NCBI GenBank assembly: GCA_025929805.1
Contig: JAICPP010000002.1
Location: 1 to 34,582 of the forward strand
Origin: Gemmatimonadales bacterium
GTDB taxonomy: Bacteria > Gemmatimonadota > Gemmatimonadetes > Gemmatimonadales > GWC2-71-9
DNA: 34,582 nt
Reading direction: 5' to 3'
Position 1 is the stretch's first letter. Each line of letters starts with the position of its first letter. The position numbers were made by a program, and so were the translations under genes. Under the pieces are notes generated by a model. It was given only the letters and a program-made list of their open reading frames with translations. It had not been told where the DNA came from and made no database searches. Of the stretch, positions 9,931-22,709 are shown one piece after another.

Positions 9931-9936
9931 TGTTTT

Positions 9937-10033
9937 GCCCCAGGTCCGAAGGGCGCCGGCGCGTGAACCGCGTCAGGACCTCGCCGGTAGCAGCGCTAAG
10001 CGATGTCCGGTGTCGCTTCGGGGTGCCTGGGGC
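9937..10033 (+). ncRNA. ffs: signal recognition particle RNA (small bacterial 4.5S-type)
   Basis: A 97-nt hairpin. Terminal helix is GCCCCAGG / CCUGGGGC, with further helices CCGAAG / CUUCGG and GGCGCCGG / CCGGUGUC. The conserved domain IV symmetric loop is present as GUCAGG...AGCAGC (9972-9994), and ACUUUUCUU follows. The position directly upstream of dnaX-ybaB-recR matches the known ffs/scr synteny in Bacillus and others. Confidence 0.8.
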
Positions 10034-10042
10034 ACTTTTCTT

Positions 10043-11731
10043 ATGACCATCGCTCTCGCCCGCCGCTATCGCCCGAAACGCTTCTCTGATCTCGTGGTTC
10101 AGGATCACGTGGCCGCCGTGCTGCGCGGTGCTGTGTCACGGAGCCGGGTAGGTCACGGCTATCTGCTGACCGGTCCCCGCGGGGTTGGCAAGACCACAGC
10201 AGCCCGCATCCTGGCGATGGCCCTGAATTGCGCTCGCCGTGACCCATCGGGCGAGCCCTGCGGCGAGTGCGAAAACTGCCTCCGGATCTGGAACGGGTCC
10301 GCCAATCTGGATGTCATCGAGATCGATGCTGCCAGCAATCGCGGAGTGGACGACGCCCGGGATCTCCGGGAGCGAGCCATGTACGCCGCCTCGCGCGAAG
10401 GTCATTACAAGGTCTACATCATCGACGAAGCGCACATGCTCACCCGGGAGGCCTGGAATGCGCTTCTGAAGATCCTGGAAGAGCCGCCACCGGGAGTGGT
10501 ATTCGTCTTTGCCACGACCGAGCCTCAGAAGATCGCCACGTCGGCTGCTCCGGTCATGTCCCGGCTGCAGCGCTTCGATTTTCGGCGGATCGGGCCTGGT
10601 GCCATCCGGGATCGCCTGCGGCAGGTGCTGTCCGCGGAGGGCCTCGCGGCCGATGAGGATGCCCTGACGCTGATTGCCCGGCACGCCGATGGTGGCATGC
10701 GTGACGCACTGTCGGTGCTGGATCAGTGCCTGAGCTTCGGTGAGGGGACCGTGACCGCCGAGCTGGTTCGTGAGGTACTGGGTCTGGCTGATGACGAGTT
10801 GTACGACGAATTGCTCCGCCTCGTGGTCGAGCGCCAGCCGGGAGCGGTCTTCAGCCTGGTGGACCGACTCTGTGACGCCGGTGTCGATCTCTCCGAATTC
10901 ATGGCCGGCGCCGCCGAGATGCTGCGAGCGCTGCTCATGCTGCAGCTCGGTGCCGAGCCCGATGGCTTGACCGAGGCCCTTCGCGGTACTCTGGAGTCTT
11001 ACCGTGAGCGGCTCGCCCCCGGAGACGCCCTGCGGATGCTCCGGCTGCTCGCGGAGGACGAGACCAACATCCGCAGAACCGTGAACCCTCGGCTCGCGGT
11101 TGAGACCATGCTGTTGCGCTGGGCCATGCTGGATCGGGTCGTGGATTTGGAACAGGTGCTCGAAGCAGGGAAGCGGGGAAGCCGGCAAGCAGGGAAGCAG
11201 GGTGCTAGTCCCCAGGCTCCAGCAGAAGGGTCGGGAGCCACGTATGCAGAGACAAGCGTGACCCGTTCAAGGCCAAGATCTCCTGAGGCACCTCCCAGCG
11301 TCCCCGCCTCCCCGCCGTCCGCCTCGCCCACGGCCAAGCTGGTTCCATCGATCGAGGCAATCCGGGCCGGCTGGCCGGCCATCGTAGTTGTGGCCCGGGT
11401 GCAGAGCCGCTTTCTTGGCGAACTGCTGGCCGAAGTGGAGCCTGCGGAGCTGGTGTTGCCGTGGCTGAATGTGATGCTGCGTGAGCCCAATCAGCTCTTC
11501 GCCGAGCGGCTCGAGAAGGAGGCTGCCAAGGTCGAAGAGATTCTGAGTCGCAGCTTGGGCCAGCCCGTGCGGCTCCGGCTCGTCTCCGGGTCGCCGTCAG
11601 GGACCCCGGAGCCAAAGCCCCGGCGCATGTCCGACACCAGCATCAAGGCCGACCGGCTGCGGGAGTTCCGGGCCAAGGACCCTGCCCTCGACACCGCCGC
11701 CGATGCGTTAGATTTAGAGATCGTGGATTGA
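10043..11731 (+). CDS. dnaX: DNA polymerase III subunit gamma/tau
   Basis: MTIALARRYRPKRFSDLVVQDHV..., Walker A GPRGVGKTT, zinc module CGECENC, DEAHML. The ORF-track start at 9935 would translate through the SRP RNA, so ATG 10043 is used. Confidence 0.93.
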   Translation: MTIALARRYRPKRFSDLVVQDHVAAVLRGAVSRSRVGHGYLLTGPRGVGKTTAARILAMALNCARRDPSGEPCGECENCLRIWNGSANLDVIEIDAASNRGVDDARDLRERAMYAASREGHYKVYIIDEAHMLTREAWNALLKILEEPPPGVVFVFATTEPQKIATSAAPVMSRLQRFDFRRIGPGAIRDRLRQVLSAEGLAADEDALTLIARHADGGMRDALSVLDQCLSFGEGTVTAELVREVLGLADDELYDELLRLVVERQPGAVFSLVDRLCDAGVDLSEFMAGAAEMLRALLMLQLGAEPDGLTEALRGTLESYRERLAPGDALRMLRLLAEDETNIRRTVNPRLAVETMLLRWAMLDRVVDLEQVLEAGKRGSRQAGKQGASPQAPAEGSGATYAETSVTRSRPRSPEAPPSVPASPPSASPTAKLVPSIEAIRAGWPAIVVVARVQSRFLGELLAEVEPAELVLPWLNVMLREPNQLFAERLEKEAAKVEEILSRSLGQPVRLRLVSGSPSGTPEPKPRRMSDTSIKADRLREFRAKDPALDTAADALDLEIVD

Positions 11732-11742
11732 GGCGATGGCGA

Positions 11743-11829
11743 AAGTCTAGAGTCAAGGGTCTCGGGTCGATACTACAGATGGCTCAAGATCTCTGGACCC
11801 TAGACTTTAGACTCTAGACCCCAGACTTC
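11743..11829. repeat. heptamer-phased inverted repeat element (RRGTCNN x4 / AGACNNN x5)
   Basis: 11743-11770 reads AAGTCTA GAGTCAA GGGTCTC GGGTCGA. 11795-11829 reads GGACCCT AGACTTT AGACTCT AGACCCC AGACTTC. The arms are complementary at about 20/28 Watson-Crick positions, more if G-U pairs are allowed. Confidence 0.75.
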
Positions 11830-11837
11830 TTACGACC

Positions 11838-12167
11838 ATGGCAGGACTACCCGATAGCATGGCAGATCTTCAGCAGCTTTTCCAGCTCGGTCAGCAGGTA
11901 CAGGGCCGGCTCCAGCAGTTGCAAACCGAGTTGGCCAACCGCACCATCGAGACTTCGGCCGGGGGTGGAATGGTCAAGGTCACCGCTGACGGGCGGGGGA
12001 CCGTACGGGCGGTCTGGATCGACCCCGCGGTATTTCAGGGTCATGACGCTGAATTCCTGAGCGATCTCGTGTTGACCGCCGTCGCCGAAGCCCAGCGCCG
12101 CGCGGCGGAGATGCTGCAGACCGAAATGCGCAAGGTGCCGTCACTGCCATTTGCGTCACCCTTCTGA
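11838..12167 (+). CDS. ybaB: YbaB/EbfC family nucleoid-associated protein
   Basis: About 109 aa with a Q-rich N-terminal helix followed by SAGGGMVKVTADGRGTVRAVWIDP. Canonical position between dnaX and recR. Confidence 0.9.
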   Translation: MAGLPDSMADLQQLFQLGQQVQGRLQQLQTELANRTIETSAGGGMVKVTADGRGTVRAVWIDPAVFQGHDAEFLSDLVLTAVAEAQRRAAEMLQTEMRKVPSLPFASPF

Positions 12168-13038: not shown

Positions 13039-13533
13039 TTGATGAGCGGCGCTTCGAGCTGGTCCTTCCGCGAAGACGATTCCCGGCGAATTCAGTCGAT
13101 CCTCAGTGCTTTCCTCGGCGAGTCCAACGCTCGCACCGCTCTGATCGTCGATCGGACCGGCCAGATGGTTTCGACTGCCGGTGAAACGCCCGCGTTCGAT
13201 GCTACCGCATTCGCCTCGCTCACCGCCGCCGATTTCAGTGCCAACGACCAGCTCGCCCGCATGCTCGGCGAGAACGAGTTCGGTGCCTTGTTCCATCAAG
13301 GCGAGCGGGAGTCGATGTACCTGGCGGATATCGCGCGTCGGGTCATCCTGGTAGTGCTGTTCGACAACCGGACGACCCTGGGGCTGGTCAAGCTCCGGGT
13401 CAAGACGGCGGTGGTTCAACTCAATCAGGTATTCACCGACATGTTCAACCGGGATGGCACCAGTGCGCCTGGCGTGGAATCGGAGTTTCTGGGCGAGGCA
13501 GAAGACGAAATCGACAAACTCTTCGGGTCCTGA
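13039..13533 (+). CDS. mglB: Roadblock/LC7 domain protein, MglB-like GTPase-activating protein
   Basis: About 164 aa, with ALIVDRTGQMVSTAG and the roadblock fold pattern. Lies immediately upstream of an MglA-type GTPase, as in the myxobacterial mglBA operon. Confidence 0.8.
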   Translation: MMSGASSWSFREDDSRRIQSILSAFLGESNARTALIVDRTGQMVSTAGETPAFDATAFASLTAADFSANDQLARMLGENEFGALFHQGERESMYLADIARRVILVVLFDNRTTLGLVKLRVKTAVVQLNQVFTDMFNRDGTSAPGVESEFLGEAEDEIDKLFGS

Positions 13534-13545
13534 GGCAAACACCGC

Positions 13546-14220
13546 ATGTCGATGATCAACTACGCCTCGCGCGAGATCAACTGCAAGCTGGTGTACTATG
13601 GCCCCGGCCTGGGGGGCAAGACCACCAACCTGGAGCACGTGTACAACAAGGTGGCTCCCGCCTCGCGCGGAAAGATGATCTCATTGGCCACCGAGACCGA
13701 GCGAACGCTGTTCTTCGATTTCCTTCCCGTCGATCTGGGCACCATCCGGGGATTCAAGGTCAAGTTCCACCTGTATACCGTACCGGGCCAGGTCTATTAC
13801 AACGCATCACGGAAGCTGATCCTCAAGGGGGTCGACGGCGTGGTGTTTGTGGCGGACAGCCAGATCGAGCGTATGGACGCCAATATCGAGGCCATGCAAA
13901 ATCTCTACGAGAACATGACCCAACATGGCTACGACGTCACCAAGATTCCGTTCGCCATTCAGTACAACAAGCGTGACCTGCCCAATGCCGCACCGATCCC
14001 GGAGCTCCAGACTGCGCTCAACCCGGGCTGGCCGGTAACCGATCCCAGCAAGCAACGGGTCACCCCGGATCCTTACCACGACTCGGAATATCTCGTCCGG
14101 CAGGAAGACGGGCAGTGGGTCGAGCGGGCTCCGTACTTCGAGGCCGTGGCCTTGACCGGCGAAGGTGTGTTCGACACGCTGAAAGCCATCAGCAAGAACG
14201 TGGTCAAGACCTTGGGGTAG
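13546..14220 (+). CDS. mglA: MglA-family Ras-like small GTPase
   Basis: [63 protein letters not shown] and [13 protein letters not shown] are near-identical in pattern to MglA. Carries an extra segment of about 30 aa between NKRD and the G5 region. Confidence 0.9.
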
Positions 14221-14874: not shown

Positions 14875-14970
14875 AGCTGGGAGCGTGGAGTGAGGAGCTA
14901 AGAGCTAATGGTCCCGATCTCCAGCGTCCTCCTCAGCTCCCAGTTCCCATCCCCCAGCTCCTAGCTCCTC
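14873..14970. repeat. heptamer-phased inverted repeat element (GGAGCTN x5 / NAGCTCC x5-7)
   Basis: 14873-14907 reads AGAGCTG GGAGCGT GGAGTGA GGAGCTA AGAGCTA. 14934-14968 reads CAGCTCC CAGTTCC CATCCCC CAGCTCC TAGCTCC. It fills the whole pgsA-cinA spacer from stop codon to ATG. Confidence 0.8.
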
Positions 14971-16218
14971 ATGAACATCGAGTTGGTCACCATCGGCACG
15001 GAACTGCTGCTCGGCATGACGCTGGACAGCAATGGTGCGGAGATCGCGCGGGCGCTCGCGGCTCAGGGAGTGCGGGTTACCCGCCGGACGTCGGTGGCCG
15101 ACCGGCCCGACGAAATCCGGGAGGCCGTCTCCGGCGCACTTCACCGTAGCGGCGCCGTTCTCACCACAGGCGGATTGGGGCCTACCAGAGACGATGTGAC
15201 CAAGAAGGTGATTGCTGACCTGTACCAGGTGCCGCTGGAGTTCGATGCAAGCGTGTGGGCCAACCTGGTCGAGCGGTTTGCCCGTCTGGAGCGGAAACCG
15301 CCCGAGAGCAACCGGAGCCAGGCCGAAGTTCCCCGTGGCGGCCTGGTGCTGCGAAACCGCTGGGGCACGGCGCCCGGATTGTGGTTGGAAGGGCAGCTGG
15401 GGCTCACCATCATGCTCCCAGGCGTCCCCGGGGAGATGCGCAAACTGCTGGAGCATGAAGTGGTTCCCCGGCTGAGGGCAAGAGCATCGGGCGCCGTGAT
15501 ACGATCGCTGCTGGTCAGGACCAGTGGCATTGCCGAGTCGGCGCTGGCCGAGCGGCTCGGCAATATCGAGCAAGAGGTGGATCCCCTCACCGTCGCCTAC
15601 CTGCCGAGTGTGGCGGGGGTCGACCTTCGGCTGAGTGCCTGGGAGCTTGCTCCGGACGAGGCCGATCGTCGGCTCCGGTCGGCGGCCAACCTCGTCCGGA
15701 GCCGGGCGGGCGAGAGTGTGTATGGAGAGGGCGATATCGACCTGGCGTCCCTGGTCTTGGAGGAGGCCCGCTCCCTCGGACTGCGGCTCGCCGTGGCCGA
15801 GTCATGCACCGGTGGGTTGGTCGGTGCACGATTAACCGAGATCCCGGGGAGCTCCGACGTTTTCTTGGGCGGAGTGATTGGCTATGACGATGGAGTCAAG
15901 CGGGAGCTTCTGAATGTGCCGGAACCACTGTTACAGGAGCACGGCGCGGTGAGTGAGGCAGTGGCCCGAGTAATGGCCGAGGGAGTCGCCCGGAGGCTGC
16001 ACGCGGATGTCGCTGTGTCAGTGACCGGCATTGCCGGTCCCGGTGGCGGGAGTGATGCCAAACCCGTGGGAACCATCTGGATCGCCTGCACCCTCCGCAA
16101 TGTCACTGAAGCTCGGCGACTGCGCTTGGCCGGAAACCGCCACGAGATCCGCGCCCGCGCTGCGCAAGCCGCTCTCCACCTCCTGTACCGGCAGCTGCAT
16201 GGCCTGGCTAACAGGTAA
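14971..16218 (+). CDS. cinA: CinA family protein (MoCF-type domain + nicotinamide-nucleotide amidohydrolase PncC domain)
   Basis: MNIELVTIGTELLLG..., TTGGLGPTRDD, and C-terminal AVAESCTGGLVGARLT. Confidence 0.9.
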   Translation: MNIELVTIGTELLLGMTLDSNGAEIARALAAQGVRVTRRTSVADRPDEIREAVSGALHRSGAVLTTGGLGPTRDDVTKKVIADLYQVPLEFDASVWANLVERFARLERKPPESNRSQAEVPRGGLVLRNRWGTAPGLWLEGQLGLTIMLPGVPGEMRKLLEHEVVPRLRARASGAVIRSLLVRTSGIAESALAERLGNIEQEVDPLTVAYLPSVAGVDLRLSAWELAPDEADRRLRSAANLVRSRAGESVYGEGDIDLASLVLEEARSLGLRLAVAESCTGGLVGARLTEIPGSSDVFLGGVIGYDDGVKRELLNVPEPLLQEHGAVSEAVARVMAEGVARRLHADVAVSVTGIAGPGGGSDAKPVGTIWIACTLRNVTEARRLRLAGNRHEIRARAAQAALHLLYRQLHGLANR

Positions 16219-18122: not shown

Positions 18123-18197
18123 GTAGTCGCGAGTCGGGAGTCACCAGTCAGGCCGGTCGGTCCAGGATCGTCTCAGTCCAGTCGCGACTCGCGACTT
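18123..18197. repeat. heptamer-phased repeat with 12-bp perfect inverted repeat (NNAGTCN x4; AGTCGCGAGTCG / CGACTCGCGACT)
   Basis: 18123-18150 reads GTAGTCG CGAGTCG GGAGTCA CCAGTCA. 18125-18136 is the exact reverse complement of 18185-18196. The right arm lies inside the last codons of the DUF360 ORF. Confidence 0.75.
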
Positions 18198-18573: not shown

Positions 18574-19632
18574 TCAGGCGATCACGCCCCCGCCCAGCAC
18601 CCGCTGGGCGGCGTCGAACAGGACTCCGGATTGACCCGGGGTGATCGCCCGCATCGGCACCCCCAGAGCCAGCTTCAACTGATCCGGGCGCTGCTCCAAC
18701 ACGATTGCCGGCACGGCGCGCGCCCGGTGGCGGAGCTGCACTTCGCACCGGTCCCCCGGCTCGAGGGGATCAGCGAGCCAGTTGACTTCGTCGAGGGTCA
18801 CGCGGTGGCCGGCGAGGTCCTCGGCATTACCGACGACCACTTCGCGACGCTCAGGATGGATGGCCACCACATAGCGGGCAGTCGGGGAGCCGCCCGGCAA
18901 TCCCTTCCGTTGTCCGATAGTGTACCGCCCATAGCCTTGGTGTTGGCCGATGATCCTCCCGGCCGTCGTGACCAGCGGCCCCGGCGCGAGGGCAGGAGCA
19001 TCCGCCGGCAGGTGCCGCTCCAGCACCGATACATAATCGTCGTTGGGCACGAAACAGATCTCGACCGATTCCTCCTTGTCGGCGGTGGTGAGTCCCAGTC
19101 GCCGAGCATAACCCCGGGTTTCCGCCTTGCTGAGCTCACCTACCGGCGTCAGCATGCGAGCCACGACCTGACGGTCGATCCCCCAGAGGAAGTAGCTCTG
19201 ATCCTTGGCACGATCTCGGGCCCGATAGAGGCCGCCATTCCGCGCGATGGCATAGTGCCCCGTGGCGATGTAATCGCAATCCAGCGCGTCGGCGTGAGCC
19301 AGGAGGTCGCGAAATTTGGTGAAGGAGTTGCACCGGACGCAGGGAATCGGGGTGCGTCCCCGGCTGTACTCACTTACGAAGTTCTGTATGACGTGGAGGT
19401 TGAACCGGTCCTCGAGATTGAGGACATAGTGCGGAATCCCGATTGCCGCTGCCACATCCCGAGCGTCGTTGATCGAGTCGAGCGAGCAGCAGGGACGATC
19501 GGGGACCTCATCCCCATAGCAGAAAAGCTTCATCGTGGCGCCGACCACGTCGTGACCCTGCTCGACCAGGAGCGCGGCGGCCACGGAGCTATCCACGCCG
19601 CCGGACATGGCGACGAGTACCCTAGGACTCAC
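18574..19632 (-). CDS. mnmA: tRNA 2-thiouridine(34) synthase MnmA
   Basis: [17 protein letters not shown]-loop and conserved catalytic cysteines (CCS...CVRCN). About 352 aa. Confidence 0.93.
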
Positions 19633-20927
19633 TGTGGCGCCCTCCTGGCGGTCGGCCGGTCGGCGGGTCGGCCGGTCGCCATGTTCCCGTCAACTGGATG
19701 ATCGACCGATCGACTGACCGACTGCCCGCCGGACCGCTCGTCCGCCGGACTGCCAGTCCGACCCAGTACTCCTGCCAGCTTGCGTACCTTCGCCACGACA
19801 ACCGGCACCACCTCAGCGGCGCGCTCCACATCTTCGCTGGTGCTCTCCCGTCCGAAGCTGAAGCGAACCGTTCCGAGGGCGAGCTCGCGCGGTACTCCCA
19901 TGGCGACCAGAACGTGAGACGGCTCGACTGCACCGGTGGAACAGGCCGATCCACTGGAGACGGCGACACCGGCGAGGTCCAGGTGCATCAGCAAGGCCTC
20001 GCTATCGGCTCCCTGGATCGCCACACTCAGTAAATGAGGAGCGCGGTCACTCTGCTCGGCATTGATGAAGAGGCCGGGAACGGTTGCCTTAAGGCGGGCG
20101 GCCAGGTCATCGCGCAGCGTGCGGAGTCGCGGGGCCAGCTCGGACTTTTCTGCCGCCGCCAGCTGGGTGGCACGTCCCAGCGCCACTGCACCGGCTACGT
20201 TCTCAGTGCCGGGACGGATGCCGAACTGCTGCCCACCGCCATGCAGAATGGCTTCCACCGCCTTACGGTCGCGCACGATGAGCGCCCCAATCCCCTTTGG
20301 CGCTCCGATCTTATGGCCCGAGATGGTGAGAAGAGTGCAGCATAACTCCTGAACCGATACCGGCACCTTGCCGATCGCCTGAACCGCATCGGTATGGAAC
20401 ACGACATCGGCCTCACGGCAGCGGCTCGCGATGTCGGCGACCGGCTGGATCACGCCCACCTCGTTGTTCACCCACATTACCGACACGACTGCCGGCGCAT
20501 CCCTCAACGCGGTGTCCAGTGCATCCAAGTCCAGCACACCATTGCGGTCCACCGGGAGCAGGACCTCCCGTCCACCCAGGTGGCACACGGCATGAGCGGC
20601 GGCAAGCACCGCCTTGTGCTCGATTGCACTGACCGCCGCACACATCCGGGCTCCGCGGTCCCGTGCCGCCAGCGACGCACCGACGATGCTGAGGTTGTCG
20701 GCCTCGGTTCCACCCGAAGTGAAGATCACCTGACTCGGCTCCGCCCCGAGTGCTTCCGCAATCTGGCGGCGGGCCTGCTCGATGCCCGCGCGTGCGGCGC
20801 GGCCGAACCGGTGGGCGCTCGATGGGTTCCCGAACGACTGGTCGGTGAGGTAGGGCAGCATGGCCTCCAGCACCTCCGGTCGCACCGGCGTGGTGGCGGC
20901 ATGGTCGAGGTAAACGGGAGCGCGCAT
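19629..20927 (-). CDS. cysteine desulfurase (NifS/IscS class V aminotransferase), with low-complexity C-terminal tail
   Basis: [34 protein letters not shown] (PLP lysine) and SSGSACS (catalytic Cys loop). The stop overlaps the mnmA start as GTGA. The start is either ATG 20927 or GTG 20963. Confidence 0.88.
19650..19766. repeat. period-8 tandem/inverted repeat (GGTCGGCS x4 and CGACNGNN-type units) inside the desulfurase 3' tail
   Basis: 19650-19681 reads GGTCGGCC GGTCGGCG GGTCGGCC GGTCGCCA. 19703-19726 reads CGACCGAT CGACTGAC CGACTGCC, and the 8-nt phasing continues to about 19766. The GGTCGG and CCGAC cores are complementary. Confidence 0.6.
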
Positions 20928-20949: not shown

Positions 20950-20998
20950 GACTCCCTCACCACAAAGTGAAGAGTGAAAAGTCAAAAGTGATAGTACT
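20950..20998. repeat. heptamer-phased repeat (AAAGTGA-type x4) with short complementary arm
   Basis: 20964-20991 reads AAAGTGA AGAGTGA AAAGTCA AAAGTGA. 20951-20960 (ACTCCCTCAC) is complementary to part of the array. Lies between the bshB1 stop and the desulfurase start. Confidence 0.65.
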
Positions 20999-21001
20999 TC
21001 G

Positions 21002-21718
21002 TCAGATGCTGCGGACACCGAGCTGGACGACGTCCTCCACTTCCATCGTCTCGTGAGTGAAGAATGGCTCGCCGTACCTCTTGCGTATCAACGAGCCATA
21101 GTGCGCATTCTGGGTCTCAACCAGAGAGTAGAGGTCCTGCCCGGTGGGGAATATCTCGCCGGCGGCTTTCGCCCCGTCGAACTGACTGCCGTAGCACTTG
21201 ATAGCAGCCAGCTTACGCTCGAACTGGGTGGTGATGTCCACCACGAAGCTGGGTTTGACGGGGTCTTCGCGGTAGGAGAGGGCATACAGGAGCTTATGCG
21301 GGCGATGGGCGGTTCCGCCGGCCGGGTAGCGCTCGAGCCCCGCCAGATAGCTTGAATCCCGGCCCAGCTCCGAGGTTACCCGGTGATCGGGGTGCCGTCC
21401 AACGGGGAAGGGTAGTATGAGCACTCGGGGAGCGAAGTGACGAATCTGCTCGACGATAGCCCGCCGAGTCTCATCCGAGTTCTGAAGGTGGGCGTCGGGG
21501 AGGCCGGCATTTCTCCGTTCGGCAACCCCGAGAATCCGTGCGGCCCGTTCGGCCTCTTCCGCTCGCAGTGAGGCACTGCCCCGGGTGCCGGCCTCGCCGG
21601 CAGTGAGATCCAGTATAGCCACCCGATAGCCGGCATCGACTGCCTTGAGCAGGGTACCGGCGCAGGTCAACTCGACATCGTCGCGGTGAGCGGCGATGGC
21701 CAGAATGTCAACGGGCAT
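21002..21718 (-). CDS. bshB1: PIG-L family deacetylase, bacillithiol biosynthesis BshB1-like
   Basis: MPVDILAIAAHRDDVELTCAG..., LDLTAGEAGTRG, HPDH. About 238 aa. The ORF-track start at 21790 would translate through the GTGAACG repeat. Confidence 0.75.
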   Translation of the reverse strand: MPVDILAIAAHRDDVELTCAGTLLKAVDAGYRVAILDLTAGEAGTRGSASLRAEEAERAARILGVAERRNAGLPDAHLQNSDETRRAIVEQIRHFAPRVLILPFPVGRHPDHRVTSELGRDSSYLAGLERYPAGGTAHRPHKLLYALSYREDPVKPSFVVDITTQFERKLAAIKCYGSQFDGAKAAGEIFPTGQDLYSLVETQNAHYGSLIRKRYGEPFFTHETMEVEDVVQLGVRSI

Positions 21719-21732
21719 CGACGAAATAAAGC

Positions 21733-21797
21733 GTGAACGGTGAACGGTGAACAGTGAACGGGAGTGAGGCTTGGCCCGTTTACTGTTCACCCTTCAC
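21733..21797. repeat. heptamer-phased inverted repeat element (GTGAACG x4 plus inverted copy)
   Basis: 21733-21760 reads GTGAACG GTGAACG GTGAACA GTGAACG. 21775-21797 (CCCGTTTACTGTTCACCCTTCAC) is the reverse complement of 21740-21762 at 21 of 23 positions, with a 12-nt loop. Confidence 0.85.
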
Positions 21798-21806
21798 GGA
21801 TACCAT

Positions 21807-22709
21807 TCAGGCAGACGCGGGTTTCCGCCGGTACCTCTTTGCAGCGATCACCCCGCCCCAGCCGAAGATCACGACCGGCACCACAAAGCCAAGTGAGGCA
21901 ATGACGCCGGCAACCACGCCCACGAAGTTCCGCCAGGCGGTCTTGAATGCCTCGCCGATGACGCTGCGGCCGGGGTGAGAGGCCACGATAGGCGCCGGTT
22001 CATACAGGCTCACGGACAGTGTGCTCAACTGAGCACTGGCCTTCAGGAACCGCAACCGGCCCTCCATTCGCTCGATCTCTTCCCGCACTCGCGCGAGCTC
22101 GCGCTCAACGGTGAGCACGTCCTGAAGTTTCCCGGTCCGCGTTCGCAGCAGCTCGATGAGCCTGTCCTCGAGCCGATGTGCGTTCGCCACTCGTGCGGAC
22201 AGATCCACGAACTCTTCGCCGACATCCTCGGCGCCCACGTTGACGTACTGGAGCCGTCCCAGTGGTTCCAGGCTAGTAGTCAACTCATCAAAGCGGGAAG
22301 CCGGCACTTTGAGTTCCAGCGTCGCCGAGCGCAGCTGGTTTCGGCCACTCTGGATGGCGGCGTCGGCCACGAACCCTCCGGCCCGCAGCACGATTTGCCG
22401 GAGCTCGGCCATGGAGCGTTCCAGCGAATCCACCTCGATACTCGCTCGTCCCGTGCGTACGATAAGACGGGAAGCATCATCCACTGGTGGCCGCCGGGAC
22501 CATGGCTGGGTTGCCGGCGCCTGCGCCGATTGCTCGGTGTCGGATGCGACCCCGCCGCCCACAACGCCCAAAGGGACCGGACTCGATGCTTTCGCGTCTT
22601 GCCTGGCATCTCGTCGTTCGCGGACCGGGCTGGAAACCTTGGGGGAACCCTCACATGCCATCAGCAGGACCGCCTGGAGCAGCCCAACTATCATCATCTG
22701 TGCTCGCAC
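21807..22709 (-). CDS. DUF4349 domain-containing lipoprotein
   Basis: The central pattern LIVRTGRASIEVDSLERSMAEL...LELKVPASRFDEL...LEDRLIELL...ERELARVREEIERMEGRLRFL and a C-terminal TM are typical of DUF4349. With GTG 22709 the N-terminus is MRAQMMIVGLLQAVLLMAC (lipobox). AAGGAGG lies 4 nt upstream. The alternative start is ATG 22697. Confidence 0.7.
   Translation of the reverse strand: MRAQMMIVGLLQAVLLMACEGSPKVSSPVRERRDARQDAKASSPVPLGVVGGGVASDTEQSAQAPATQPWSRRPPVDDASRLIVRTGRASIEVDSLERSMAELRQIVLRAGGFVADAAIQSGRNQLRSATLELKVPASRFDELTTSLEPLGRLQYVNVGAEDVGEEFVDLSARVANAHRLEDRLIELLRTRTGKLQDVLTVERELARVREEIERMEGRLRFLKASAQLSTLSVSLYEPAPIVASHPGRSVIGEAFKTAWRNFVGVVAGVIASLGFVVPVVIFGWGGVIAAKRYRRKPASA

Follow-up and report, generated by a model that had tools for sequence, protein, structure and literature searches.

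What is the hairpin of tandem 7-base repeats that stands directly in front of a PIG-L/bshB1-like deacetylase gene in a contig of a soil Gemmatimonadales bacterium (JAICPP010000002.1, positions 1 to 34,582, a 34.6-kb stretch that we call the window)? The spacer upstream of this PIG-L family deacetylase (bshB1-like) gene holds a real hairpin, here named element F, and the locus raises the question of how such a structure arises between two genes, how widespread it is, and whether it ends transcription or is part of the message. Our answer is that element F is probably not a terminator but a member of a class of intergenic heptanucleotide-repeat hairpins, present genome-wide, that is born by slippage and read through. 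The element is located as follows:

21733-21797, minus strand: element F, a period-7 hairpin in the 88-nt spacer that leads from the DUF4349 gene to the PIG-L/bshB1-like gene.

The plus strand of element F reads GTGAACG GTGAACG GTGAACA GTGAACG, described by Tandem Repeats Finder (TRF) as GTGAACG x4.1 at 21733-21761 with a period of 7 and 90% matches. An inverted-repeat finder placed the arms at 21740-21762 and 21775-21797 (23 nt, 91% or 21/23 complementary) around a 12-nt loop (21763-21774); since the arms are themselves repeats, pairing is also possible in registers shifted by 7 nt. The genes on either side are both encoded by the minus strand. Element F begins 9 nt 3' of the DUF4349 stop codon (TGA, 21807-21809), and the ATG of the bshB1-like gene at 21718 follows 14 nt 3' of the element, the stretch between them being GCTTTATTTCGTCG. 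The order in the mRNA is the hairpin, a U-rich run GCUUUAUUUCGUCG, and the bshB1-like AUG. The initial annotation of this locus was borne out in every detail: array, arms, loop, 9-nt distance from the stop and following sequence. The minus-strand spacer RNA folds with -33.6 kcal/mol, compared with -18.4 +/- 3.0 kcal/mol for 200 dinucleotide shuffles (z = -5.0), 0/200 of which fold equally well. In the whole window, two period-7 arrays were seen at a strict threshold versus ~0.05 in dinucleotide shuffles.

The class was characterized in 67 Gemmatimonadota loci from related metagenome-assembled genomes (MAGs), comprising 1.03 Mb with 77 kb of intergenic DNA. Genes were called using a codon-usage model trained on the farmland-soil contig described below, and arrays were accepted at a threshold of at least 19 matches in windows of 24 comparisons. 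The resulting spectrum was:

Period 7: 61 arrays in spacers (79 per 100 kb), 6 in genes (0.63 per 100 kb).
Period 8: 18 arrays in spacers, 7 in genes.
Period 9: 4 arrays in spacers, 8 in genes.
Periods 5, 6, 10, 11 and 12: 0-1 arrays in spacers for each.

Period-7 arrays are ~125x denser in spacers than in genes, and seven intergenic ones were also found in 13 outgroup loci, mostly of Acidobacteriota. Array density in 20-kb loci ranges from 39 to 141 per Mb, which by extrapolation would amount to hundreds per genome. A gapless palindrome search in the 438 spacers of 25-400 nt detected long hairpins (score of at least 13) in 18% of co-directional and 23% of convergent spacers, in 0/43 divergent ones, and in ~0% of shuffled spacers; arrays per kb are likewise ~10x rarer in divergent spacers (p = 6.5e-4). 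Of the 81 hairpins scoring at least 12, 43 have arms that repeat best with a period of 7 and 12 with a period of 8, and the mean lag-7 autocorrelation is 0.52 versus ~0.28 at other lags. The enrichment over genes and the ~0% in shuffled spacers support the earlier proposal of a non-random, period-7 family in gene spacers.

The periodic hairpins (n = 49) have a median arm of 25 nt and a median loop of 18 nt. They start at a median of 5 nt past the stop codon and end at a median of 19 nt ahead of the next start, few of them being <8 nt from it. The lag-7 match rate is at background at the stop codon and exceeds 0.7 by position +7; the stop codon itself is outside the array. In the 5' arm, G exceeds C in 40/49 of these hairpins, and 35/49 have a purine-rich 5' arm; the G-rich arm also comes first in 32/39 hairpins (p = 7e-5) of an independent metagenome set, composed of contigs picked solely for a GTGAACG array. 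A palindrome has the same sequence on either strand, so which arm leads is inherent in the element and is not dictated by how it is transcribed.

A different design was found in the non-periodic hairpins (n = 32). These are ordinary intrinsic terminators, e.g. AACCCCCCGCCGGGC-TCTG-GCCTGGCGGGGGGTT, with a median loop of 4 nt and 3.4 T downstream versus 1.7 A upstream, whereas the periodic hairpins have 2.7 T downstream versus 2.4 A upstream and no T-run asymmetry. Canonical, bidirectional-looking terminators in four related loci (L024 14183-14251; L033 14473-14542; L021 5063-5131; L023 14251-14316) consist of an A-run, a GC-rich 13-16-bp stem, a 3-4-nt loop and a T-run, and thus ordinary terminators are used alongside the heptamer hairpins. 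A consensus terminator scan of the window flagged no element; the tail of element F is moderately U-rich, the sole such case among the window elements in the terminator test. Counts of sense-strand G:U versus A:C pairs were 47 versus 22 in the non-periodic hairpins (p = 0.0035) and 51 versus 35, a trend, in the periodic ones (p = 0.10); as a test of RNA-level selection this comparison was set aside, being non-significant for the periodic hairpins and confounded by transcription-linked C-to-T bias.

The window contains five more loci that the initial annotation had joined to element F, describing each as having its own unit repeated in strict 7-nt phase and followed by an inverted copy:

11742-11829, plus strand: element A, a period-7 hairpin of degenerate units in the dnaX-ybaB spacer (fold z = -2.3).
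14875-14971, plus strand: element B, a period-7 hairpin that fills the pgsA-cinA spacer from stop codon to ATG (z = -4.2).
18125-18196, no strand assigned: element C, a period-7 hairpin between the convergent dnaJ (stop 18122) and holin-like (stop 18173-18175) genes (z = -2.6).
19633-19760, minus strand: element D, a period-8 hairpin at the aminotransferase/mnmA junction (fold z = -3.0).
20964-20991, minus strand: element E, AAAGTGA x4, one-armed, in the spacer between the bshB1-like and aminotransferase genes.

The grouping held for the loci at 11743, 14873 and 18123, which are period-7 hairpins, but not for 19650, whose period is 8, or for 20950, where no inverted arm exists (0 inverted pairs by the inverted-repeat finder and no significant fold, z = -0.8). 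The phase is not strict either, the units at 11743, 14873 and 18123 being degenerate. Element A combines a 5' array (AGTCTAG AGTCAAG GGTCTCG GGTCGAT) with a 3' array (CTCTAGA x5.3, 11791-11827), and its arms at 11745-11768 and 11796-11819 are 83% complementary around a 27-nt loop. The 5' units of element B are GAGCTGG GAGCGTG GAGTGAG GAGCTAA GAGCTAA, its gapless arms are at 14891-14906 and 14956-14971, and its outer stem is AGCTGG / CCAGCT. In element C, the units AGTCGCG AGTCGGG AGTCACC AGTCAGG go with arms at 18125-18139 and 18182-18196. Element D consists of the arrays CGGTCGGC x3.8 (19649-19678) and TGACCGAC x4.8 (19699-19736), with arms at approximately 19645-19677 and 19700-19732.

A purely intergenic location holds for only part of the additional loci: 19650 is inside the called aminotransferase open reading frame (ORF), and the 3' arm at 18123 enters the holin-like (Phage_holin_4_2) gene, whose final 8 codons (SSRESRLD*; 18173-18196, minus strand) are the 3' arm of element C. 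The C-terminal tail of the holin-like protein is unconserved among relatives. Each locus literally has a different unit, as had been stated, yet elements E and F (20950 and 21733) have a GTGAA core in common, and the 11743 and 18123 loci have AGTC in common. The remaining window spacers, mostly AT-richer upstream regions and the signal recognition particle (SRP) RNA region, contain no arrays of this type, and Rfam gave no family match for any element, its sole match in the window being the SRP RNA at 9937-10036.

The arrays are not assembly artefacts, because identical arrays occur in contigs of other samples and long contigs carry them as well. A farmland-soil contig that is 99.8% identical to the window over 19.7 kb (39 substitutions, 1 of them inside an element, and 0 indels) has all six elements. 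An exact-match look-up with YbaB yielded six more contigs from other samples, and 3 of these (98-99.6% identity) have the identical hairpin 11745-11819 of element A. Related array-bearing loci are partly on contigs of hundreds of kb to >1 Mb. The independent assemblies checked thus sustain the earlier claim. On a 1.8-Mb MAG contig (L012 10761-10875), the spacer after bshB1 holds a nearly perfect TTCCTGA x15, so arrays can far exceed the usual 3-6 units. Relatives of the bshB1-like protein are found in Gemmatimonadales/Gemmatimonadota MAGs and next in Acidobacteriota. An exact look-up of the MglA protein (see below) for further strains returned no record, and the GTDB loci, with one genome per species, provide no pairs closer than the farmland contig for a copy-number test.

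Comparison of orthologous spacers, proposed earlier as a way to find variation, gave no copy-number change at 99.8% identity but revealed gain, loss and change of unit among relatives. The spacer upstream of bshB1 is 0-20 nt long and hairpin-free in many MAGs (L003, L005, L006, L008, L011, L017 and others); in other MAGs it is 80-184 nt long, with hairpins of varied unit (GAGAAGT, AGTGAAG, GAATGCA, AACGCGG, TGGTGCG, AACGGGA, ATTGCGG). At this spacer, GTGAACG together with the 3' flank GCTTTATTTC is common only to the window and L010 (85% protein identity). The pgsA/cinA spacer varies among relatives in a similar manner. Between L020 and L026 (85% nucleotide identity), arms are nearly identical and loops are unrelated; the number of units changes as well, and one of the L026 spacers has just one arm. 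Hairpin A is kept with three substitutions in L203 and L204 (~90% identity). L205 is 99.2% identical from ybaB on, yet hairpin A is missing from its spacer, which measures 101 nt and differs in sequence. Both this spacer and the dnaX end of L205 (L205 1-440 versus window 11400-11860) are too diverged for megablast, and a recombination breakpoint in L205 appears, from this alignment pattern, to coincide with the hairpin-bearing spacer.

The earlier suggestion that arrays are generated locally gained direct support at three junctions: (i) in L204 (~91% identical), a 30-nt mini-hairpin AGCTGG-CTT-CCAGCT replaces the 96-nt element B, and the pgsA/cinA junction reads TAG-C-AGCTGG-CTT-CCAGCT-CCTGGCTCTCTCCT-ATG, i.e. 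the outer stem of element B without its heptamer interior; (ii) at the aminotransferase/mnmA junction, the window has ~120 extra nt, element D, between GGTCG and TG, and L012 has a nascent four-unit, one-armed array; and (iii) in L005 and L010, units begin in a stop-codon context. For the second of these, the class-V aminotransferase ends in 12/12 relatives in a common C-terminal motif followed by [V/A/G]*, and among these the closest ones show an 8-nt overlap between the aminotransferase stop and the GTG start of mnmA. Element D is built of GTCG-type 8-mers resembling the final aminotransferase codons, and comparison with five relatives found no terminal repeats or target duplication at its junctions. 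The aminotransferase ORF is open through element D (19629-19757, minus strand), gains 42 residues (444 amino acids versus 391-393 in twelve relatives), and ends at a TGA overlapping the mnmA GTG start. Elements D and B and the L005/L010 units support birth from local sequence rather than ready-made arrival.

The units share a composition rather than a motif. On the G-rich strand they contain 44% G and 26% A, and rotational alignment revealed no shared motif beyond composition (information content 3.85 versus 3.62 +/- 0.09 for shuffled units). Unit pairs that differ at no more than one position make up 25% of the pairs compared inside a genome and 6.9% of those compared between genomes. In L026, GAATGCA/GAATGAT units occur at five spacers, several of which follow paralogous FtsX-type permease genes ending in '...YE*' (GAA TGA) and thus have a seed in common. 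A 20-nt probe matched GTGAACG arrays elsewhere, on at least 120 metagenome contigs. Among the matches listed, 36% of contigs have the inverted partner and none encodes bshB1 or DUF4349, so no type-locus orthologues were among them. With these contigs, and with relatives that reuse one unit at several spacers, the units cannot be called locus-specific, as they initially were. Variant units follow one another in mirrored order in the two arms, with z = 8 under naive shuffling and p = 0.024 when the register is re-optimised after shuffling; the latter is the fair control and leaves a modest signal. Two ideas about the units were rejected. Provision of stops in all three frames as the purpose of a period that is not a multiple of 3 does not fit 19 unit stops versus 18.4 expected from composition (TGA is mildly raised, 13 versus 7.3, uncorrected p = 0.014), and ATGA/GTGA/TTGA start/stop overlaps as universal seeds are not enriched, the stop codon being outside the array.

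We propose that a short sequence beside a stop codon would be duplicated in 7-nt, sometimes 8-nt, steps by slipped-strand mispairing, after which an inverted copy of the array would arise in the same spacer and create an imperfect palindrome of 15-40 bp that encloses an unrelated loop. Long perfect palindromes without central asymmetry are unstable, and the long loops of the class fit this instability. Units, copy numbers, loops and whole arms turn over quickly between species, and arrays persist only downstream of genes, where they begin just past the stop, end 10-20 nt ahead of the start, and nearly always have the G- or purine-rich arm first. This pattern is observed in the spacers; its cause we infer.

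The distance from hairpin to start, 14 nt for element F and ~19 nt for the class, leaves no room for a promoter, and hence the downstream gene would be transcribed through the hairpin. Such transcription would make element F a part of the intercistronic mRNA and not an efficient terminator. Element F would be inside a transcription unit of the DUF4349, bshB1-like, aminotransferase and mnmA genes. Upon read-through, the mRNA would fold into an imperfect ~23-28-bp stem that holds ~65 nt of untranslated spacer double-stranded and draws the stop codon near to the start that follows. Free C-rich RNA is a loading site for Rho; with none of it exposed, an inserted hairpin would do operon expression little harm, and folding could make inserts tolerable in operons whose genes originally abutted or overlapped. 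The G-first order is consistent with avoidance of a free C-rich segment, since the C-rich arm would pair once made. By analogy with the repetitive extragenic palindromic (REP) sequences of enterics, the hairpin may be a 3'-exonuclease barrier or an RNase III site; stems of 23-40 bp are plausible substrates or barriers of these kinds, and an RNA-stabilising role of element F is possible.

Several observations count against this proposal. The contigs of 99.8% identity, with no copy-number change between them, give no sign of a high slippage rate, and some genomes reuse units more than pure local seeding predicts. The non-significant G:U trend in the periodic hairpins is weak evidence for RNA-level selection on the stem. 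The proposal accounts for neither the period of 7 nor the G-first order, and read-through, folding in vivo and effects on stability or Rho are inferences. A broader version of the proposal is unlikely: that the hairpins of Gemmatimonadota, Acidobacteriota, Xanthomonas and cyanobacteria form a cross-phylum class of self-folding operon inserts, made by 7-nt slippage or template switching, whose invariant design, with the G-rich arm leading, the beginning at the stop codon and the end shortly ahead of the ribosome-binding region, is selected to hide intercistronic RNA from Rho and to keep translational coupling. If it were true, Rho surveillance could be read from the G-first rule in phyla that have not been cultured.

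Function might instead come first, with the hairpins being selected intercistronic mRNA stabilisers or processing sites, comparable to REP/BIME of E. coli, that set operon gene levels and the repeats merely the easiest route to a long stem. This possible but doubtful explanation draws on the occurrence of hairpins solely downstream of genes, a stem length sufficient for RNase III, the conserved arms and replaced loops of L020/L026, the mirroring of unit variants slightly above chance, the sense-strand G:U trend, and the processing-site stem-loops of Anabaena nif operons, which go with longer half-lives (PMC4284476). It has to contend with the absence of the hairpin from the same spacer in many relatives, differences in presence even among close relatives, the ordinary housekeeping character of the genes, the non-significance of the G:U bias, and one-armed arrays (element E; L026 12779). 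Action as a Rho-independent terminator or attenuator, possibly tail-less and bidirectional, is very improbable, even though element F had initially been taken for a candidate intrinsic terminator. Long loops, no class-wide T-run asymmetry, and ~19 nt to the next start without promoter space disagree with it, and so do the canonical terminators of another design in the same genomes, the scan that flags no window element, and element D, inside an ORF that reads through. The position just past stops, the enrichment in convergent and co-directional spacers, and the U-rich GCUUUAUUUCGUCG after element F are what would be expected of terminators, and with a 3' arm rich in pyrimidines the RNA:DNA hybrid would be weak.

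A mobile origin, as elements similar to REP/REPIN or to miniature inverted-repeat transposable elements (MITEs) that are spread by a transposase in trans, is quite unlikely. One arm sequence is reused at many spacers (GAATGCA in L026 and L020; GGCGGGAG in L067), element D resembles a ~120-nt insertion where genes otherwise overlap, and GTGAACG arrays recur at the other loci noted above; however, arm-sharing copies differ completely in the loop and also in copy number, and with unrelated loops the whole hairpin is not the copied unit. Moreover, neither terminal inverted repeats nor a target duplication flank element D, adjacent spacers in the same genome carry different units, and local seeds are visible. 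The 34.6-kb window has no transposase gene, a weak argument since a REP-associated tyrosine transposase (RAYT) could lie anywhere in the genome. The arrays could finally be binding sites for a protein that reads 7 nt, either a cold-shock-domain protein (single-stranded RNA or DNA) or another DNA-binding protein. In keeping with this, the period is strictly 7 or 8, each domain of B. subtilis CspB is described as binding one heptamer (cited in PMC4679880), and there has been speculation about a binding partner of the Nostoc heptamers (bioRxiv 10.1101/2022.06.06.494920). The chance of this is remote, given that the units have no motif beyond composition and vary between spacers and genomes, and that most arrays are tied up in pairing with their inverted copy.

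Some features of the window and its relatives stand apart from these hairpins. The SRP RNA (bacterial small, RF00169) at 9937-10036 on the plus strand (45.3 bits, E = 7.6e-07) is just upstream of dnaX; the mechanically called ORF 9935-11731 therefore begins too early, and the dnaX start is more likely near 10043. Within the dnaX coding region (11162-11202, plus strand) is a period-8 array, GAAGCAGG x5.1, translated as EAGKRGSRQAGKQG, with an array of CCTCCCCG x3.2 nearby at 11291-11316; these in-gene arrays, whose period is not a multiple of 3, are probably in the variable tau linker. A separate conserved palindrome of ~75 nt (…CACGCTAAAGCGTG…TATA…CACACCCTTTAGGGTGTG…) recurs in several Gemmatimonadales MAGs (L020 3297-3437; L026 18351-18539; L033 10718-10838). 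In two MAGs it occupies the bshB1/aminotransferase spacer, the site of the AAAGTGA array in the window. Rfam offers no family for this palindrome, only chance matches resembling microRNAs. Between recR and pgsA (13042-14220, plus strand), a Roadblock/LC7 protein adjoins an Arf-like small GTPase, which looks like an MglB/MglA polarity pair.

Intergenic heptamers have been known since 1990, and their preference for seven bases and their function are still without explanation. Here they prove dense (~40-140 arrays per Mb) in the Gemmatimonadota, which are a major phylum of soils with few cultured members, and they obey testable rules: a start at the stop codon, 10-20 nt left before the next start, the G-rich arm first, absence from promoter spacers, and a build unlike that of neighbouring terminators. 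Relatives catch births and losses of hairpins as well as their absorption into a protein C-terminus. For annotation, the hairpins lengthen spacers, lead ORF callers astray (at two gene ends of the window), and could pass for terminators or small RNAs.

Several known systems resemble this class. The short tandemly repeated repetitive (STRR) heptamers of heterocystous cyanobacteria, attributed to Mazel et al. in 1990, reportedly comprise several unit families with ~100 or more copies per genome. The shared traits are tandem heptamers in non-coding DNA and several unit families per genome, copies per genome being only extrapolated in our case from the densities in 20-kb loci. The STRRs are presented as three tandem heptanucleotides of Calothrix PCC7601 in PMC4692102, citing Mazel et al. 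1990. The hairpins are not STRRs in the strict sense because the phylum (Gemmatimonadales here) and the units differ, the latter being diverse here.

The REP sequences and bacterial interspersed mosaic elements (BIMEs) are extragenic imperfect palindromes of enterics and pseudomonads with hundreds of copies per genome (PMC2817692). They are similarly placed between co-directional or convergent genes and transcribed within operons, and as exonuclease barriers that give operon segments differential stability they are the closest functional analogy. Unlike REP, a conserved 20-40-nt family linked to RAYT, the hairpins described here are internally periodic stems without a conserved family sequence, and are thus not a REP family: the six window elements use at least four units, and loops are unrelated between copies. 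No transposase or RAYT was found among the genes of the 34.6-kb window, the only genes scanned. Assignment to MITEs was rejected, as element D lacks terminal inverted repeats and target duplication relative to five relatives and copies vary in loop and unit number. The TAACTGA repeats of Beggiatoaceae, cyanobacteria and Bacteroidetes share intergenic heptamer arrays near ORF ends and a patchy phylogenetic distribution, but they have a single unit, are almost all direct (169 direct sets versus 1 inverted), and are mostly located just upstream of start codons (PMC4679880).

The nearest counterparts are the long simple-sequence repeats (LSSRs). According to PMC4679880 and PMC4692102, heptanucleotides are the commonest such repeats in numerous bacteria, Burkholderia, Actinobacteria and Xanthomonas among them, as Mrazek, Guo & Shah showed in 2007, and their polymerase-footprint idea is the sole proposal for the 7-nt step that we found in these texts. 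Element F has the traits by which LSSRs are defined: GTGAACG x4.1 is longer than expected by chance, its period is the preferred one, and it is non-coding. As far as the same texts go, LSSRs also share tandem 7-nt units beyond chance length in non-coding DNA, preference for 7 among 5-11 nt, GC-rich hosts and a proposed slippage origin, whereas the survey scored direct repeats only, and the inverted partner, the G-first polarity and the placement from stop to ribosome-binding site are undescribed there. The GGGAATC repeats of Xanthomonas likewise lie in intergenic DNA, are scarce where the adjoining genes diverge, can be inverted, and vary among close relatives (PMC4692102). Together with the Nostoc GGGGA(C/T)T repeats they share with our class the polarity, the rarity between divergent ORFs, some inverted pairs, variation of length and sequence among close relatives, and no link to a gene class (PMC4692102). 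They differ in having one dominant unit prone to G-quadruplex (G4) formation, where we find many units per genome, mostly without G-tracts, and in forming hairpins only occasionally, where the hairpin is the usual form here. With the Xanthomonas GGGAATC repeats and the heptamer repeats of other GC-rich genomes on record (PMC4679880 and PMC4692102), the initial statement that a GC-rich genome offers no described equivalent does not hold. Our literature searches turned up no account of such repeats from either Gemmatimonadota or Acidobacteriota, and the accessible text of the two LSSR papers does not mention Gemmatimonadota. The Gemmatimonadota, and also the Acidobacteriota, are a new lineage for a known kind of repeat, represented by the STRRs, the LSSRs and the Xanthomonas GGGAATC repeats, and not the carriers of a new system.

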